Assembly (NCBI GenBank): GCA_016181525.1
Contig: JACOZD010000022.1
Coordinates: 1-37,929, forward strand
Reading direction: 5' to 3'
Origin: Candidatus Tayloriibacteriota bacterium
Lineage (GTDB): Bacteria > Patescibacteriota > Minisyncoccia > Phycocordibacterales > JACOZD01
DNA length: 37,929 bases
Below, piece after piece: positions 12,001 through 18,000 of the stretch (positions are counted from its first letter, which is position 1; the number at the start of each line of letters is the position of its first letter). A program made the position numbers.

Positions 12001-15000
12001 TTTTTCCCATAGCGGCCATGCCGCTCGCCACCGCGGCAAGATTTTGCTCGGCCACCCCCATCTCCACAAAACGCTCCGGGAACTTATTGCGGAAGAGGTG
12101 CATCTGGGTGGACTCGGTGAGGTCGGCGCAGAGCCCGACCACTCTTTTGTCGGCCTCGCCTGCCGCCAGCAAGCCCTCGCCGAAGCCCTTGCGTATAGGG
12201 ACTTGCTCTACATCTTTATCAAAAAGTTTAGGATTGAGTTTTGCCTCCTCGGGAATCATTCTATATTACTAACTACTTACTAATTTATTGATGCTCGCTT
12301 ATAATCCTGCCGCCCAGTGTTCTTAACTCCTCGAGGGCCAGTCGGCCTTGCTCGCCTTTGGGCGGCTCGCCAGGCATATCAGAGGCGCCGGGCGGGGTGC
12401 CGTGCCACTTGAAGTCCCGCTCCATGAAGGAAACTCCTTTGCCAGGGATAGTGTGGGCCAGAATAACCGAGGGCTTGGAGAAAACGGCCTTGGCCTCGTT
12501 AATGTGTTCAATGATGTCCAGAAAGTTGTGTCCGTCTATCTCCTGCACATGCCAGTTAAAGGCCTCCCACTTCTGCCGCAGAGGCTCAAGCGGCATAATA
12601 TCCTCGGTGTAGCCGTCAATCTGGATGTTGTTTCGGTCCACGACGGCTATGAGATTGCCGAGCTTCTCTTTGCCGGCAAGCATCGCCGCCTCCCAGAGGT
12701 TGCCTGCATCCTCTTCGGCGTCGCTCAAGAGGGCATAGATAAAGCGGCCGGAGGACCTGCCTCTGTCCATCCTGTCAGCCAGAGCCATACCTACCGCCTG
12801 CGAGAGTCCGGAGCCAAGCGGGCCAGAGCTCGTCTCCACCGCTCCGAAGTACTGGCGGTGAGGATGGCCTTGGAACTTGGTGCCGAACTTGCGGAGTGTC
12901 TTCTTATACTCCTCCACCGAGGCGTAGCCGGCATGAGCCATGGCGCTGTAAAGGACAGGGCAGATGTGGCCGTTCGAGAGCACCAGCCGGTCTCTCTCCT
13001 CCCAAGCCGGGTTTTTGGGATCGTGGCGGAGGATATAAAAAAAGAGGGCGGCGAAGATATCCGCCATGCCAAGCGGCCCGGCGCTGTGGCCCGAGCCGGC
13101 TCCAATCAAGGCCTCGATGAGCGTTTGGCGAATCTCGTTCGCCTTCTCCTCGAGCATCCGGAGGTCTTTCTCGTGCAGATGAACCTTCATTGCTTTGAAA
13201 ATGAGGATTTGAATTTTTTGCCTTGCGCAGCGCGGCGGCGCGAGCAGAGCAATTTGCCAACAGGCAAATATGCGTAGCAAAAAATTTGAATCCTCATGAC
13301 ATTATATCATAAATTCACAAATTCTTTCAGCGTGCTGCGGATGTCGGCACTGCCGAAAAGCGAGGAGCCGACGACCAAACGGCTGGCTCCTGCCTCCTTA
13401 AGACGCAAAGCATTATCAAGTGAAACCCCTCCATCGACACTGATAATCAAGTCGGGAAATCGTCCTCGGAGATCTACTTATCCAAAACCTCATATCTAAA
13501 CTCCCCACCCTGATAACCAATTTCGGCGATACTCATAAGCTGGACGAAGTCCGCCGCCTCAACATGCTGATAAATTAGCTCAATTGGAGTATCCAGGAGA
13601 AGAGCCATGCCGAACTCCGGGTTCGAAGAGAGCTTCGAAGATTTTGGAGATTTTTGACGAAAGTCCTTGATAAGCCGCTCAAGGTTGGACGTGCTTTCGA
13701 CATGCGCTATCACTCGTCTGGCCCCGGCTGAAACCCAGCTGTCAATCTGTTCCTCCGGCCCCTCGAGCATAAGATGGACCTCAAAACCAAGCTCCTCCCA
13801 AAAAGGAAAGCTCACATCCCCTTTAACGAATTTGCCAAAGTCGCCCTCTTTATCTCCAGAGAGAGGCCAGTTTAGGGCAGGAGAAAACTTCCCGTCCGAT
13901 ACATCAATATGGACAACATCAACCAACCCCCGGACCAAAGACACCTTGCGGCGCAAGTCGTCAAAATTTTCCGGAATGATGGCTGGGATAATCTCCATGA
14001 CTACTTACTAATCTCTTCAATCTTCTTGATTCTCCTGACATGCCTTTCTTCGCCTAGGAACGGAGTTTCGAGCCAGAGTCGAACGGCTTCTTTGGCCTCA
14101 CTCTCACTTAAAAATCTCGCCCCCAGAGCAAGAACATTGGCGTTGTTGTGCTCCCGCGAGAGCTTGATAATTTCCTGCCCGCCGCCGTAAAAAACCGCCG
14201 CCCGGACGCGGGGAAAGCGATTAGCGACAGTGGCTTCCCCCTGTCCCGAGCCGCCGATGACAATCCCACGTCCCTCCGGATTTTTTGAGATCTGGCGGGC
14301 CACTGGCGCCAGCAAGTCCGGGTAGTCGTCCGCCGGAACATAAGAGCTCGGCCCCAAATCAGAAACTTCATACCCCAGTTCTCTTAAAAAAGCAACGAGC
14401 TTGCCCTTCAACTCAAACCCTGCGTGGTCAGCTCCAATAAAAATTTTCATGATAATACGAGATACGAAAGTATACGAATTGCGAATAAGAACCTCTTTAT
14501 ATAAATTTAAAAGCTATCTTGTTAATTTCTTCATTAAAAAATTTCTTAACCTCCTTCCAACTTATTTTAAAGTGAAGCATGAGAGGCGGATCGCTTTCGG
14601 CATCTTCGAAATAGACGAGACTCTTAAGTATATGATGATAGTCGTGAGCAATGGACGGGTACTGCGCAGCCAAACGCCCCATAGTTTTCTCAAGTGGCTC
14701 AAGATGATGCGCGCACCAATAAAGATCAAAAAAGTCTCTCTTCCGGCCTCGTTGGGAAATAGCAATTATTTTCATGACTGCGATATCTAACGGTTGCAAG
14801 ATATTCACTGTGCCATAGCGTACAAATTCTTTTTGGGGTATAAAAAATGGATAGGCGATAAAGCTCACTTTTGCCTGATATAAAACTCCATAAATAGTGC
14901 TGGGCCTGTCAGTCTGTATTTTCCAATCTTTATTTTCCTTGAAATGGCCAGTAACTTCAGTTGATTCGAATGTGGCCTCCTTTGTAAAAAAATCTAAATC

Positions 15001-18000
15001 AACAGATGACCGATGGCCGGTTTGCAAAGCTAGAGCGGTTCCGCCAGCCAAATACCATCCGAGCCCACCAAGCCATATTTCCGTAGATAGAAACTCTAAT
15101 GCCTTTTTTGTCGGCTTTGGTAAAACCTCCCAATGGAAGTTCAAATTTTCTGCAATAAGAGAGTCCATAAATTTTTTGTCTCCGGTCTCAATGACCTTGA
15201 TTTGAGAACAACTTTCTTAAGTAGAGCATTATCATAGAAATTACGGAGCCATCTGACTTCCTCATCATGACCAAAATCAAGCACGCGCTCAATGACATAC
15301 TCCGCGTTTTTTTCGAGGTCTACATTCTTCGGATCAACATCCCAAAAGAGCGACTGTCTTAATTCCATGCCTATATTATAACATATTTTTTAGCTCATAT
15401 ATACTGACCGGCTTTAATCACATGCTCGACCAAGGTGGAAGCATACCCCATTTCGTTGTCGTACCAAGCCAGAACCTTGACGAGATTGCCGCCGACCACC
15501 CGAGTCATCTGAAGGTCGGCGATGGCGGCGTAGCGGCTGCCTTTGATGTCCGAGGAAACTAAATTCTCTTCAGTCACGGTGAAAATATCCTTCCAGCGCG
15601 GCGAGCTTGCCGCCTTTTTCAAGATTTTGTTGACCTCATCGGCGCTCGTGGCCCTCCTAGCCACTAAGGTAACATCTACGATGGAACCGACAACCACCGG
15701 CACTCGAATGGAGATTCCGTCAAAAAGCCCCTTGAGAGCGGTGTAGGCCTTGGTGACGGCCACGGCCGCGCCTGTTGAGGAAGGAATAATGTTCTCCGCT
15801 CCAGCCCGACCGTCTCGAAGATGTCTTTTGCTCGGTCCGTCCACCAGCGTCTGGGTGGCGGTGTAAGCGTGGACGGTGGTGAGGAGCGCCTTCTCTACCC
15901 CAACAGTTTCGTCGAGGATAGCAAGCAAGGGACTGCCAGCGTTGGTGGTGCAGGAAGCGTTAGAACTAATTTCGCAGGTTTTGAGTTTTTCCTCGTTCAC
16001 CCCTATAAGCACCGTCGCGCCCCGCACCGTTTCCGGTTCATCCCCAGCCGGCGCGGTCATGACCACGCGCTTGGCCCCGGCCGTGAGGTGCGCCTTACTT
16101 TTCTCGAATGAGGAAAAGCGGCCAGTGGCCTCCACCACCACATCAATATCAAGCTCACGCCACGGCAACTTTTCTGGTTCCTTCTCGCTTAAATAATCTA
16201 TTTCTTTCTTATCCACCTCCAAAAAAACCCGCCCCGCCCGCCGCGAGACGCGGACGTTTTTGTCATACTTGCCGTAAACGGTGTCGTAGGTGAGGAGATA
16301 GCCAAAAGTCTCGGCCTCGCCGAGGTCATTAACCGCCACCACCGTTAGCTCCGGTTTCTCCAAAGCCATTTTGAAAAACGCTCTGCCGATTCTGCCGAAA
16401 CCGTTGATGGCCACCCGAATCTTTTTCATCTGCACTATTATATCTGAATTTTCTCAAACTCCTCAATGACACTGTTGATTTCTCCCTTGAAGATTGCGTC
16501 AATATTATGCCAGCTCTTTTTCAGCCGGTGGTCAGTCACCCGGTCCTGAAGGATGTTGTAGGTTCTAATTTTCTCCGACCGGTCGCCGGTGCCGATTTGC
16601 CCGCGCCTTTCGGCGGCGTGCTTCTTGGCCTCCTCTTCCTCCACCGCCCTCTCGAGTTTGGCCGAGAGCACCGCCATGGCCCGCTCGCGGTTGGCCGACT
16701 GGCTGCGCTCGGCGGTGGAGCGCACGTCGAGGCCGGTCGGTTTATGAATAACCCGTACGGCCGTTTCCACCTTGTTGACATTCTGTCCCCCTTTGCCGCC
16801 CGAGCGCGAAAACTCTATCTCAAGGTCCGCCGGATTAAGCTCGATTTTTGGCTTCTTTCTCATGGGCAGGACGGCCACCGAGGCGGTGGAGGTGTGGATT
16901 CTCCCGGACTTCTCTGTAGTGGGGACACGCTGGATGCGATGAACGCCGGTCTCAAAACGCAGGCGCCTGTAAACATCCCGCCCGCGAATCTCGAAGGCGG
17001 CCTCTTTGTAACCGCCTAGGTCGCTCTTTGATTCGTACAATGGTCGCCACTGCCAACCCTGACCCTCCGAGTATTTTTGGTACATTTCCGCCAGAGTGGC
17101 GGCAAAGAGAGCGGCCTCCTCGCCTCCGGCGCCGGCCCTGACCTCGAGCACCAGTTCATTTGGGAATTCATCATCATCCTCGGAGCCCGCAATCTCCTCC
17201 ATCTGTTCGAGCAGGGCCGCTTTGCGTTCGGCGATAGTTTTAAGTTCCTCCTCGGCTAGCTCCCCCATCTCGGGAGTGGCGGAGACGGCCAAAAGCCCCT
17301 TCTCTTCGGCCAGAAGTTTTTCGTATTCAGAAACGAGATAGAAAGTTTTGTGATTCCGCTTAAATCGAGCTAATGAATCGTCCATCTACTTGACCTTATC
17401 GGTTTTCTTGGGGGTAATCGCTTTTTTGGATTGCCTGGCCTTGAACTTCTCCACTCGGCCGGCCACGTCGATAATCTTGTCTTTGCCGGTGTAGAAGGGG
17501 TGACAGGCGCTGCAAATCTCCACGTTGATTCTCTCTTTGGTCGAACCGACTGTGAACTCGTTGCCGCAAGCGCAGTGAACAAGCGCCTTAGGATAATATG
17601 CGGGGTGAAGACCTTTTTTCATAACCCAATTTTAGCAGAAAAAGCGAGGGCGCTCAAGAGAAGGAAGAGAAGGAACGGTAATGTGCAAGCACGTATGGCG
17701 GTTGAGCGAAAAACCCCAAGGACCGTCCTTGGCGGAGCCAACATCGAACTGCCCTTGTTGTGTCGCGTGAAGCGACCTGTGGAAAAAATTGCGGCGCCTG
17801 TCCGCCAAAGCTTTAGCGTCGGCGGAGAAGCCAGAAGACCAAAGACCAATAGGTCCAAAGACCCAAGGCCCAAAGTCCTAGCGACTACCGCAAGACGCGG
17901 AACCCCAGTGGTCAAGCGAGCTGTCGACCCCGACCCAGTCGAGCTCCGGCCGACCGCCGCCGTCCAGATAGACACTCGGCACCCTGACGGCGGACTCGTA

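Follow-up and report, generated by a model that had tools for sequence, protein, structure and literature searches.

Several two-gene systems built around a small nucleotidyltransferase (NTase) have been described. In MNT-HepT (MntA-HepT, type VII), two small overlapping genes encode a minimal NTase of family PF01909, which is the antitoxin, and a HEPN RNase. In AbiEi-AbiEii of Streptococcus agalactiae, AbiE of Lactococcus, MenA3-MenT3 and MenA4-MenT4, the NTase is instead the toxin, belongs to PF08843, and is encoded second in a bicistronic arrangement. MenA1-MenT1 (Rv0078B-Rv0078A) of Mycobacterium tuberculosis likewise has a DUF1814-superfamily NTase of ~190-220 aa after a very short partner gene, and it provides the precedent for a short antitoxin (68 aa), unrelated to AbiEi, that serves a DUF1814 toxin (PMC10435456). 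Antitoxin-induced auto-phosphorylation has been described for MenT1, MenT3 and AbiEii (PMC11375011; AbiEii preprint), the modified residue of MenT1 being T39 (PMC11375011), and JHP933 of Helicobacter pylori (PDB 4O8S/4OK0) has been proposed as a contributor to host virulence (AbiEii preprint).

We analysed a window of 37,929 nucleotides, the whole stretch of DNA considered here, from a Candidatus Taylorbacteria genome, in which an AT-rich cassette of two genes (944 bases) lies on the minus strand between the sugar-metabolism genes gap and rpiB (Table 1). In our judgement this cassette is probably a horizontally acquired toxin-antitoxin pair of the MenAT/AbiE kind with a new antitoxin family; it would comprise a promoter of its own together with genes for DUF6922 and for a DUF1814/AbiEii NTase, gained horizontally and now residing at the gap|rpiB junction. 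Both open reading frames, with their overlap, were found where the initial annotation had placed them. The start of gap is either GVG 16435 or ATG 16429, its stop lies at 15395, and the 344-aa form of the GAPDH is identical to an NCBI record. No terminator-like site was found in 14451-14497, and as no terminator is predicted in the 46-nt spacer, read-through into rpiB is likely.

Table 1. Features of the cassette and its flanks (positions in the window)
Feature	Positions	Strand	Basis or remark
gap (type I GAPDH)	15395..16429	-	upstream flank; Pfam Gp_dh_N and Gp_dh_C
Extended -10 element TGTTATAAT	15375..15383	-	sequence; last base 6 nt from ATG of the 75-aa gene
DUF6922 gene, 75 aa, presumed cognate antitoxin/partner of the NTase	15141..15368	-	PF21956
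Overlap of both ORFs, 28 nt	15141..15168	-	NTase ATG 15168-15166 made by the L67-W68 codons (TTA TGG)
DUF1814/AbiEii-family NTase gene, 223 aa, presumed toxin	14497..15168	-	PF08843
Catalytic motif R53-S54-S55-V56-D57-L58-D59	14992..15012	-	two metal-binding Asp and putative phospho-acceptor S55
DUF1814 motif IV, K133-x6-R140-x3-R144-D145-x2-D148	14725..14772	-	aligned to JHP933 KLCAC...RTKARDLFDL
Spacer, NTase stop to rpiB ATG, 46 nt	14451..14496	-	without predicted terminator
rpiB (ribose-5-phosphate isomerase B)	14001..14450	-	downstream flank; PF02502, 142 bits

The assignment of the 223-aa protein to the AbiEii/DUF1814 nucleotidyltransferases, made initially from motifs, is confirmed by profile and fold. 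The protein matched PF08843 (AbiEii) at 58.2 bits against a Pfam cut-off of 22.5, contains the GGTALALQTGHRSSVDLDFF stretch, and is identical to a protein named by NCBI 'nucleotidyl transferase AbiEii/AbiGii toxin family protein'. Its homologues form 3951 clusters, the best non-self match being 77% identical. Residues R53, S55, D57 and D59 are invariant across 46 homologs, and K133, R140, R144, D145, D148 and the G42G43T44 motif are invariant in the homolog alignment as well. As in AbiE, MenAT3 and MenAT4, the NTase motifs are thus kept, including the Ser/Thr phospho-acceptor, although the PADLOC AbiEii models gave weak and partial matches (29.5 bits at most); an NCBIfam search with the cassette proteins gave no match. 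The catalytic spacing is identical to that of MenT1, both in R-x-[T/S]-x-D-x-D (R37/T39/D41/D43 in MenT1) and in K-x11-D-x2-D, where the K-to-D distances of 12 and 15 match K137/D149/D152 (PMC11375011).

The structure model of the NTase (pLDDT 92.1) had its best Foldseek match in JHP933 (4ok0, E 2e-6), followed by MenT1 (8an5_B, E 6e-6, TM 0.53/0.63) and MenT4 (6y56, E 3.5e-5). JHP933 was also the best match in the profile search (4o8s, E 0.003), with both catalytic motifs aligned, although identity is ~20% and JHP933 is not known to have a partner of the DUF6922 type; the sequence identity with MenT1 is only ~14-15%. With every catalytic residue of the family kept, the NTase may, by homology, add nucleotides to tRNA 3' CCA ends and so stop translation, as do MenT1, MenT3, MenT4 and AbiEii. 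In the literature, no abortive-infection phenotype is known for the NTase subfamily of the cassette.

Where the cassette departs from AbiE, MenAT3 and MenAT4 is in the partner, an unrelated 75-aa protein that matched PF21956 (DUF6922) at 66.2 bits (Pfam cut-off 27). The initial annotation had suggested a truncated or an alternative antitoxin. A truncated AbiEi was rejected, as there was no AbiEi match and the protein falls in a conserved family of its own; the alternative antitoxin holds to the extent that DUF6922 is a distinct family whose antitoxin role we infer. A word-limited search returned 235 clusters of homologues, the best non-self match being 78% identical, and the family as a whole exceeds 2000 representative clusters, as against only 21 menA1 genes in a published search (PMC10435456). 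With their homologues and Pfam scores above cut-off, the two open reading frames of the cassette did not arise by chance. Like the 68-aa MenA1, the DUF6922 protein has no DNA-binding domain; however, it is modelled with high confidence as a compact four-helix domain, whereas MenA1 has one long and one short helix (PMC10435456). No solved structural relative of this fold was found, and neither sequence nor fold similarity was detected to MenA1, AbiEi or other known antitoxins. DUF6922 and NTase genes are very commonly paired in these tiny bacteria. Our literature searches returned no paper on 'DUF6922', no study of this pairing, and no experiments with members of the DUF6922 family or of this NTase subfamily, so that toxicity of the NTase and its neutralisation by DUF6922 are deduced solely from the families to which the proteins belong and from the order of their genes.

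One could also imagine the roles reversed, with the NTase as an antitoxin that modifies and silences a toxic DUF6922 protein. In type VII systems the NTase does nucleotidylate its partner (MntA-HepT), and MNT-HepT pairs abound in the same genomes and neighbourhoods, in one relative (L072) at the gap|rpiB junction itself. Such a reversal is nevertheless very improbable, given that the characterised DUF1814 toxin-antitoxin members considered here (AbiEii, MenT1, MenT3, MenT4) are all toxins, that the antitoxin is usually the first gene in such operons, and that DUF6922 is not HEPN but a 75-aa helical protein with neither a catalytic-looking motif nor a HEPN-like Rx4-6H. The NTases of the two systems belong to different families.

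Across Patescibacteria, DUF6922 and the NTase are conserved as a unit. The NTase gene directly follows the DUF6922 gene in 64 of the 71 metagenome loci, with an overlap of 28 nt in 54 of these 64, and the same order was seen in every genome context retrieved; a divergent second pair (92 aa and 211 aa) has the same layout. Both proteins are strongly conserved, with identities of 60-78% across several lineages including Berkelbacteria, Kuenenbacteria and Sungbacteria, while the sequence 3' of the NTase stop varies among module copies. Conservation of this degree is unusual for toxin-antitoxin genes, and a more housekeeping-like role could be considered.

The strong conservation of both partners, and the dissimilarity of DUF6922 from any known antitoxin, would also suit a single two-part enzyme that requires DUF6922 as an accessory, specificity or sensor subunit rather than as a neutralising antitoxin. 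Such an enzyme might be a regulated modifier of RNA or tRNA, or a defence effector, gated by the small domain as in fused toxin-antitoxin sensors. In-frame DUF6922-AbiEii fusions exist, two of them (P0297, 284 aa; P0384, 302 aa) with intact catalytic motifs, and a covalent link is no less expected of a regulatory or accessory domain than of a labile antitoxin. A tandem DUF6922 protein (P0282) and a possible HTH-DUF6922 protein (P0382, its HTH_11 match below cut-off) further show DUF6922 as a reusable module. However, fusions are rare, with three (the third being P0357) among the best 150 representatives, MenA1-MenT1 and AbiEi-AbiEii share the standard layout of the module, a small gene that overlaps a downstream DUF1814 NTase gene, and the module is frequently found among other toxin-antitoxin pairs. 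We therefore regard the accessory subunit as unlikely, although it deserves consideration. Under the toxin-antitoxin reading, the conserved pairing, the rare fusions and the conserved Ser suggest that DUF6922 would bind the NTase and hold it inactive, perhaps by occluding the active site, or perhaps by triggering auto-phosphorylation of Ser55, which is invariant and stands two positions ahead of the first catalytic Asp, in the manner of MenA1, MenA3 and AbiEi with their toxins. Loss or titration of the partner would then free the toxin, and one may speculate that the pair is stabilised as an addiction module and possibly aborts phage infection.

In each of the 82 distinct junctions, codons 67-68 of DUF6922 contain the NTase start, which is an ATG within (T/C)TA TGG or GCA TGG in 81 and a GTG in the remaining one, and a start embedded in the upstream gene in this way suggests that the synthesis of the two proteins is coupled. 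The overlap could alternatively be read as one gene, expressed through a programmed -1 frameshift at A_AAA_AAT (15178-15172) as a DUF6922-NTase fusion of ~290 aa. The heptamer has the required reading frame, a -1 shift there would lead into the NTase frame a single codon (TTT) ahead of the ATG, and the natural fusions measure 284-302 aa. Yet an X_XXY_YYZ heptamer occupies this position in only 36 of the 82 junctions, its presence being due to conserved T-K-N codons in AT-rich DNA, and the in-frame NTase start kept in every junction argues for independent initiation. Frameshifting is thus disfavoured, and we hold it to be extremely improbable.

The initial annotation had described the segment between gap and rpiB as a low-GC mobile module, apparently inserted by horizontal transfer. 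Its composition is indeed foreign to the window: GC falls to 0.38-0.43 over 14300-15400 against 0.52-0.61 in the flanks (sliding window), and GC3 is 0.388 in the NTase gene and 0.408 in the 75-aa gene, some 2 sd lower than the mean over the window (0.625, sd 0.114), as compared with 0.58 in rpiB and 0.66 in gap. Among 64 relatives, gap and rpiB are contiguous (90 nt or less) in 26 and separated by 116-3948 nt of diverse cargo in 38, among it MNT-HepT, HicA, Fic, Abi_2 and GIY-YIG genes; the DUF6922-NTase pair stands there in only one. In Paceibacteria-type genomes, accessory genes have repeatedly landed at the gap|rpiB junction. Neither mobility genes or a recombinase nor terminal repeats were found at the module, so 'mobile' should be taken as moved by the host's own recombination: acquisition is supported, self-mobility is not. 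The collections hold no close relative of the source genome (best non-self GAPDH 69% identical), and hence no presence/absence demonstration of a recent gain.

The pair might instead be a vertically inherited, non-toxic resident of the gap-rpiB operon, for instance a nucleotidyltransferase that, like ANT(2'')-Ia, acts on small molecules, with a low GC content that reflects amino-acid or expression constraints. ANT(2'')-Ia also belongs to the DUF1814 superfamily, its fold is among the weaker Foldseek matches of the NTase model, and the missing recombinase and repeats would agree with vertical descent. The pair also adjoins gap on its downstream side in three lineages (the window, L023/L001 and L097), where module identity (69-72%) resembles that of gap (65-70%), which on its own is compatible with old vertical inheritance. 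On the other hand, such residence is at odds with a pair found in one relative of 64 and with the 26 that lack any insert, GC3 is largely synonymous, and the closest module copies lie in unrelated places: downstream of rpsJ-rplC, downstream of an RNase J-like gene, or within toxin-antitoxin clusters. Moreover, both module proteins have closer non-self homologs than GAPDH has. Vertical residence is thus quite improbable.

The extended -10 element and the leaderless transcript that the initial annotation had predicted for the small gene gain strength from the other copies. On the minus strand, TGTTATAAT (15383-15375), 11 nt from the gap stop codon, is followed by ATAGGC and the ATG at 15368. Of 77 module copies from metagenome loci, 64 have a TGnTAnnnT element whose end lies 5-10 nt (mode 6) upstream of the DUF6922 ATG, as against 13 of 1600 random positions (0.8%), and the extended -10 was also seen in L001, L004, L006 and L008. 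An element so strongly conserved and so near the first ATG predicts that transcription would yield a leaderless bicistronic mRNA.

Other genes in the window, too, have such a -10 element next to their ATG more often than expected, with 13 sites versus 3.0 in shuffles.

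On the minus strand of the window the genes run in the order rpmE, prfA, gap, a 75-aa ORF, a 223-aa ORF, rpiB, rpe and a transketolase gene that is split into two halves. As the positions of the gap stop codon, the two ORFs and the rpiB ATG show, the segment between gap and rpiB is 944 nt long and consists almost wholly of the two ORFs, which overlap by 28 nt. The ORFs, their overlap, the gap and rpiB boundaries, the -10 element and the nucleotidyltransferase motif described in the initial annotation were all recovered at the same positions. The lower GC that it had ascribed to this segment was also evident: GC is 0.38-0.43 exactly across this segment versus 0.52-0.61 on either side, and GC3 is 0.39 and 0.41 in the two ORFs versus 0.58 in rpiB, 0.66 in gap and 0.625 +/- 0.114 over 35 long ORFs of the window. 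Both proteins are 100% identical to NCBI records from a Candidatus Taylorbacteria (Patescibacteria/CPR) MAG, and since they carry public family labels this instance of the pair is not new.

Coordinates of the cassette, its surroundings and the related sites (window positions unless another contig is named)
Feature	Position	Strand	Basis or remark
75-aa ORF (DUF6922)	15141..15368	-	ORF call, PF21956
223-aa ORF (NTase)	14497..15168	-	ORF call, PF08843
gap stop codon	15397-15395	-	sequence
Promoter region: GCTAAAAAATA after gap stop, then TGTTATAAT, then ATAGGC, then ATG	TGTTATAAT at 15383-15375; ATG at 15368	-	sequence
rpiB ATG	14450	-	46 nt beyond the stop of the 223-aa ORF
-10-like hexamer before ORF start, minus strand	gap ATG 16429, rpmE 17622, 10230, 21566, 21990, 9280, 7975, others	-	16429 is the gap start used by NCBI
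-10-like hexamer before ORF start, plus strand	10260, 31384, 35996	+	
gap 3'-end copies in contig L023	6957-7036, 7510-7589, 8775-8854, 9269-9348, 10576-10595		

Two other ORFs of the window are low in GC as well, and it is possible that they are further foreign genes: a fragment of a family 9 glycosyltransferase at the end of the contig (58-564, plus strand, GC 0.39, GC3 0.35) and a 397-aa protein with no more than weak Ig-like/Kre9 matches (35927-37120, plus strand, GC 0.37, GC3 0.31). The rpe gene (ribulose-phosphate 3-epimerase; 13307-13998, minus strand) is interrupted. Its N-terminal ORF of 174 aa stops at an in-frame TAG at 13476-13474 and its C-terminal 47 aa (13307..13450, PF00834 positions 168-198) are in another frame, which points either to a pseudogene with a frameshift or to a fault in the assembly.

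The 223-aa protein proved to be the AbiEii-type nucleotidyltransferase (NTase) that had been proposed. It matches Pfam PF08843 (AbiEii, DUF1814 nucleotidyltransferases) with 58.2 bits (cut-off 22.5; E 1.6e-15), all 120 homologs among the matches listed have PF08843 as a precomputed label, and NCBI names the protein 'nucleotidyl transferase AbiEii/AbiGii toxin family protein'. The NCBIfam search gave no match for it, and thirteen PADLOC AbiEii models matched it partially and weakly, the best with 29.5 bits over residues 37-64. Three family motifs were searched for, namely hGG[ST], [RK]-x-[ST]-x-D-x-D and the DUF1814-specific K-x2-A-x3-R-x3-[RK]-D-x2-D, and all three are complete (G42G43T44; R53/S55/D57/D59; K133/A136/R140/R144/D145/D148). 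In an alignment of 46 homologs, G42-G43-T44, R53, S55, D57, D59, K100, K133, R140, R144-D145 and D148 are invariant. A search with the family profile recovers JHP933 (4O8S/4OK0), a DUF1814 enzyme of known structure, and both motifs align. In the fold comparison the confident AlphaFold model (pLDDT 92.1) is closest to JHP933 (4ok0, E 2e-6) and MenT1 in the MenAT1 complex (8AN5_B, E 6e-6) among solved structures, followed by MenT4 (6Y56, E 3.5e-5) and 8an4 (E 1e-4), with TM of about 0.5-0.63; apo or phospho-MenT1 is also among these best matches.

The 75-aa protein is a different matter. The initial annotation had considered that it might be a truncated AbiEi, and this had to be abandoned: it is an untruncated member of another family, as indicated by its match to PF21956 (DUF6922; 66.2 bits, cut-off 27, model positions 1-51 of 52), which is its sole Pfam match, by a confidently modelled fold and by the length of DUF6922 proteins, mostly 65-130 aa. 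The model (pLDDT 92.8) has an extended N-terminal segment with an invariant L7-F8-W9-D10, then four helices, and in the fold comparison it matches no AbiEi or MenA4 structure. Homology to MenA1 was looked for and was absent, PADLOC gave no match, and NCBIfam returned a far-sub-threshold match alone. When 1.84 billion representatives were searched with a profile, DUF6922 gave 2136 clusters at E<=1e-3, almost all of them with proteins of 65-130 aa; more than 2000 clusters at 50% identity were thus seen, mainly in Patescibacteria. The name 'DUF6922' is mentioned in no paper that our literature search found, and none of the papers found on toxin-antitoxin systems of Patescibacteria/CPR describes a DUF6922-NTase pairing. 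The NTase is shared with AbiE at the level of the AbiEii/DUF1814 family; however, AbiEi/COG5340 (winged HTH plus C-terminal domain) is expected directly upstream, and a 75-aa DUF6922 protein is found instead. Because this defining partner was looked for and is absent, the pair lies outside AbiE in the strict sense. The arrangement resembles MenAT1, a short antitoxin with a DUF1814 toxin, although the presumed antitoxin in the window is no MenA1 homolog.

The DUF6922 profile recovered 80 metagenome loci, 71 of them with enough downstream sequence to judge, and the NTase gene follows DUF6922 directly in 64 of the 71; in 54 of these 64 pairs the two genes share 28 nt. The layout was the same in every genome context fetched, at least 10 different ones, so adjacency and co-orientation are kept across unrelated surroundings, and even a divergent second pair (92 aa and 211 aa, with 23% and 29% identity) is arranged in this way. 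Among the accessory modules met here in Patescibacteria, the pair ranks with the better conserved ones. DUF6922 codons 67-68 supply the NTase start codon: in 81 of 82 distinct junctions an ATG arises from (T/C)TA-TGG or GCA-TGG, and one CTG-TGG gives GTG. Codon 67 is Leu in 80 junctions and is written TTA or CTA in 79/80, a clear sign that codons 67-68 are dual coding. An overlap of this kind might instead reflect a programmed frameshift producing a DUF6922-NTase fusion, but the internal NTase start codon is kept universally and we give this next to no chance. The heptamer A_AAA_AAT, tried as a -1 frameshift site, was found in just 36/82 junctions and was rejected.

Natural in-frame DUF6922-AbiEii fusions do occur, with three among the best 150 of the 2136 representatives. 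Catalytic motifs are intact in two of them (P0297 and P0384), and the third (P0357) is without the N-terminal NTase motifs. Other DUF6922 variants include a tandem (P0282) and a protein with a possible N-terminal HTH, its HTH_11 match being below the cut-off (P0382). These rare fusions would lend indirect support to a physical link, and taken together, the pairing, the dual coding and the fusions show that the two proteins are linked in function and probably also physically. The fusions, along with the unusually high conservation, would also suit an accessory or sensor domain in place of a labile antitoxin; we consider this alternative unlikely, with a small but real chance of being correct.

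Our preferred reading of DUF6922 as an antitoxin draws on the characterised DUF1814 systems. DUF1814 toxins (AbiEii, MenT) extend tRNA 3' ends, by which translation is blocked. MenA1 (68 aa), MenA3 and AbiEi are three unrelated antitoxins, each of which binds its DUF1814 toxin and induces auto-phosphorylation of the Ser/Thr that precedes the first catalytic Asp by two residues (PMC11375011; AbiEii preprint); in MenT1 this residue is T39, auto-phosphorylated on antitoxin binding (PMC11375011). The spacing of R53-x-S55-x-D57-x-D59 in the NTase equals that of R37/T39/D41/D43 in MenT1, and K133-x11-D145-x2-D148 equals K137/D149/D152. S55, invariant in the 46 homologs, is the equivalent of MenT1 T39, MenT3 S78 and AbiEii T65. 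Because the NTase keeps this serine at the position of antitoxin-induced phosphorylation, we propose that DUF6922 may bind the NTase and switch it off through occlusion, through phosphorylation induced at S55, or through the two combined. By analogy, the NTase would be toxic and would act on tRNA, and the module may function as an addiction system or protect against phage. A reversal of roles of the MntA-HepT kind is very unlikely, since each characterised DUF1814 member of a toxin-antitoxin pair in the literature found is the toxin.

The extended -10 element that had been predicted before the small gene is a conserved part of the module. In 64 of the 77 copies that could be evaluated, a TGnTAnnnT ends 5-10 nt ahead of the DUF6922 ATG, at exactly 6 nt in 39 of them, compared with 13/1600 random positions in the same loci. 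A similar layout is enriched in the window itself, where TATAAT-like hexamers lie 4-9 nt before an ORF start (ORFs of at least 60 codons) 13 times versus 3.0 in shuffles (maximum 6), several of them with an upstream TG. Since the element is conserved and the same layout is enriched, a leaderless mRNA of the cassette is a well-supported prediction, and leaderless mRNAs may be common in this genome. A GGAG is found 11 nt upstream of the NTase ATG in the window; no Shine-Dalgarno is conserved there in the other module copies, so the GGAG was not used as evidence, and we infer that the NTase would be translated by coupling to the DUF6922 gene. No terminator was predicted between NTase and rpiB, and for this reason rpiB is probably still transcribed by read-through.

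The best non-self identities are 77% for the NTase and 78% for DUF6922, versus 69%, among 5.8 billion proteins, for the GAPDH of the same genome. The pair is thus closer to foreign copies than GAPDH is to its own relatives, and with a GC3 about 2 sd below that of the host this indicates horizontal acquisition from a lower-GC relative, in agreement with the insertion originally suggested. The closest copies (77%) are at unrelated sites, one (P0123) after rpsJ-rplC inside the S10 operon and another (P0124) after an RNase J-like gene, and a 70% copy (P0135) from another Taylorbacteria MAG is near a release-factor (PCRF/RF-1) gene. On the P0123 contig (ENA ERZ1426851, genes at 81-2171) the module directly follows rpsJ-rplC, a place that in the conserved S10 operon would normally be taken by a further ribosomal-protein gene; this is a second case of landing in a core operon. 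Other copies are in clusters with MazEF, MNT-HepT and ParE/YafQ genes, and the module GC in other hosts (0.37-0.48) is near their local GC. Vertical inheritance with a housekeeping role has very little chance of being correct given the patchy distribution and the foreign GC3.

The conserved part of the module runs from about 20 nt upstream of the DUF6922 ATG to the NTase stop codon; a conserved 3' end was rejected, as nothing is shared downstream of that stop in the copies compared. There is no recombinase in the cassette, nor room for one, no terminal repeat or attachment site was found at its ends, flanking repeats or a target-site duplication were sought in 14300-15500 with chance matches alone, and no integrase or transposase was present in the module contexts read. 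On these grounds a self-mobile element (IS, integrative element or integron cassette) was rejected. A phage or plasmid origin was rejected: IMG/VR has no DUF6922 relative, the plasmid search gave no match, no PHROGs family matched, and the NTase has one weak match (27%) in an unannotated 'Bacteriophage sp.' contig. As recombinase, repeats and attachment site were not found and the viral and plasmid collections contain no member of the family, transfer was probably by the recipient's own recombination. In two loci (L175 and L114) the sequence immediately after the NTase stop resembles a tRNA 3' end in reverse complement (…GGAATCGAACC… and …GGATTCGAACC…), from which the module looks to adjoin putative tRNA genes there too. 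tRNA genes are classic insertion hot spots.

Our joint reading is tentative, plausible and still short of probable: DUF6922 would be an unrecognised, very widespread antitoxin family for DUF1814 toxins, which may act via auto-phosphorylation of S55 with a fold unrelated to MenA1 or AbiEi, and a minimal unit of promoter and two genes would spread as a cassette whose leaderless promoter and embedded start codon allow it to land in core operons (gap-rpiB, S10) without silencing the genes downstream. DUF1814 toxins (AbiEii, MenT) are currently an active topic. If this reading is true, DUF6922, far more abundant than MenA1, would be a third structurally unrelated partner family with which to test the generality of antitoxin-induced auto-phosphorylation, and this Pfam domain would gain a function. 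It would extend a known type of system and current ideas would stand. The conserved promoter of the cassette, set right at the start codon, is in keeping with a genome where leaderless genes seem to be common. The genomes of Patescibacteria are tiny, their known defence systems are few and genetic tools are lacking, so a portable module could be studied in a heterologous host.

The gap-rpiB junction was compared using the GAPDH of the window in a scan of one genome per species, which gave 80 loci. The best GAPDH was just 68% identical because the genome's own species is unrepresented; the genome is no GTDB representative, and the collections searched held no close relatives for a presence/absence comparison. 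The order gap-rpiB-rpe-tktN is kept in 64 of the 80 loci. In 26 of these 64, gap and rpiB are contiguous (-13 to +90 nt), and in 38 they are 116-3948 nt apart, with GC nearly always below the flanks. The cargo varies by genome: toxin-antitoxin or defence-type genes such as MNT+HepT (L072), HicA (L012), Fic (L025) and an Abi_2 protein (L074), nucleases and unknowns such as GIY-YIG (L048) and DUF3800 (L032), housekeeping-type ORFs (DapF-, RsgA- and helicase-like, named from sequence without a domain scan), and recurrent small ORFs, namely small membrane proteins and a ~100-aa ORF. In these genomes, accessory genes have repeatedly landed at this junction. DUF6922-NTase pairs are found there in only 1/64 loci (L023, the contig of L001), and a short metagenome contig (L097) gives a third case of the pair next to gap.

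The island in L023 is the largest at gap-rpiB. The last ~80 nt of gap are present in it in four to five diverged copies (65-79%), one after each cassette and one of these right after the DUF6922-NTase pair, which points to a series of single-crossover insertions at the gap 3' end in this lineage. Weaker or short remnants occur in L079, L040 and L054, and no such copy lies downstream of the insert in the window. The ~100-aa ORF, beginning MESYNKLVRDKIPEILD..., has no Pfam match and is at the junction in at least 6 species (L014, L018, L023, L035, L048, L068). Membrane proteins of 70-140 aa ending ...GW(I/V/T)YGKIK(N/S)(R/K)K also recur there (L023, L054, L063, L097 and others), and in L023 and L097 such a protein is encoded directly upstream of the DUF6922-NTase pair.
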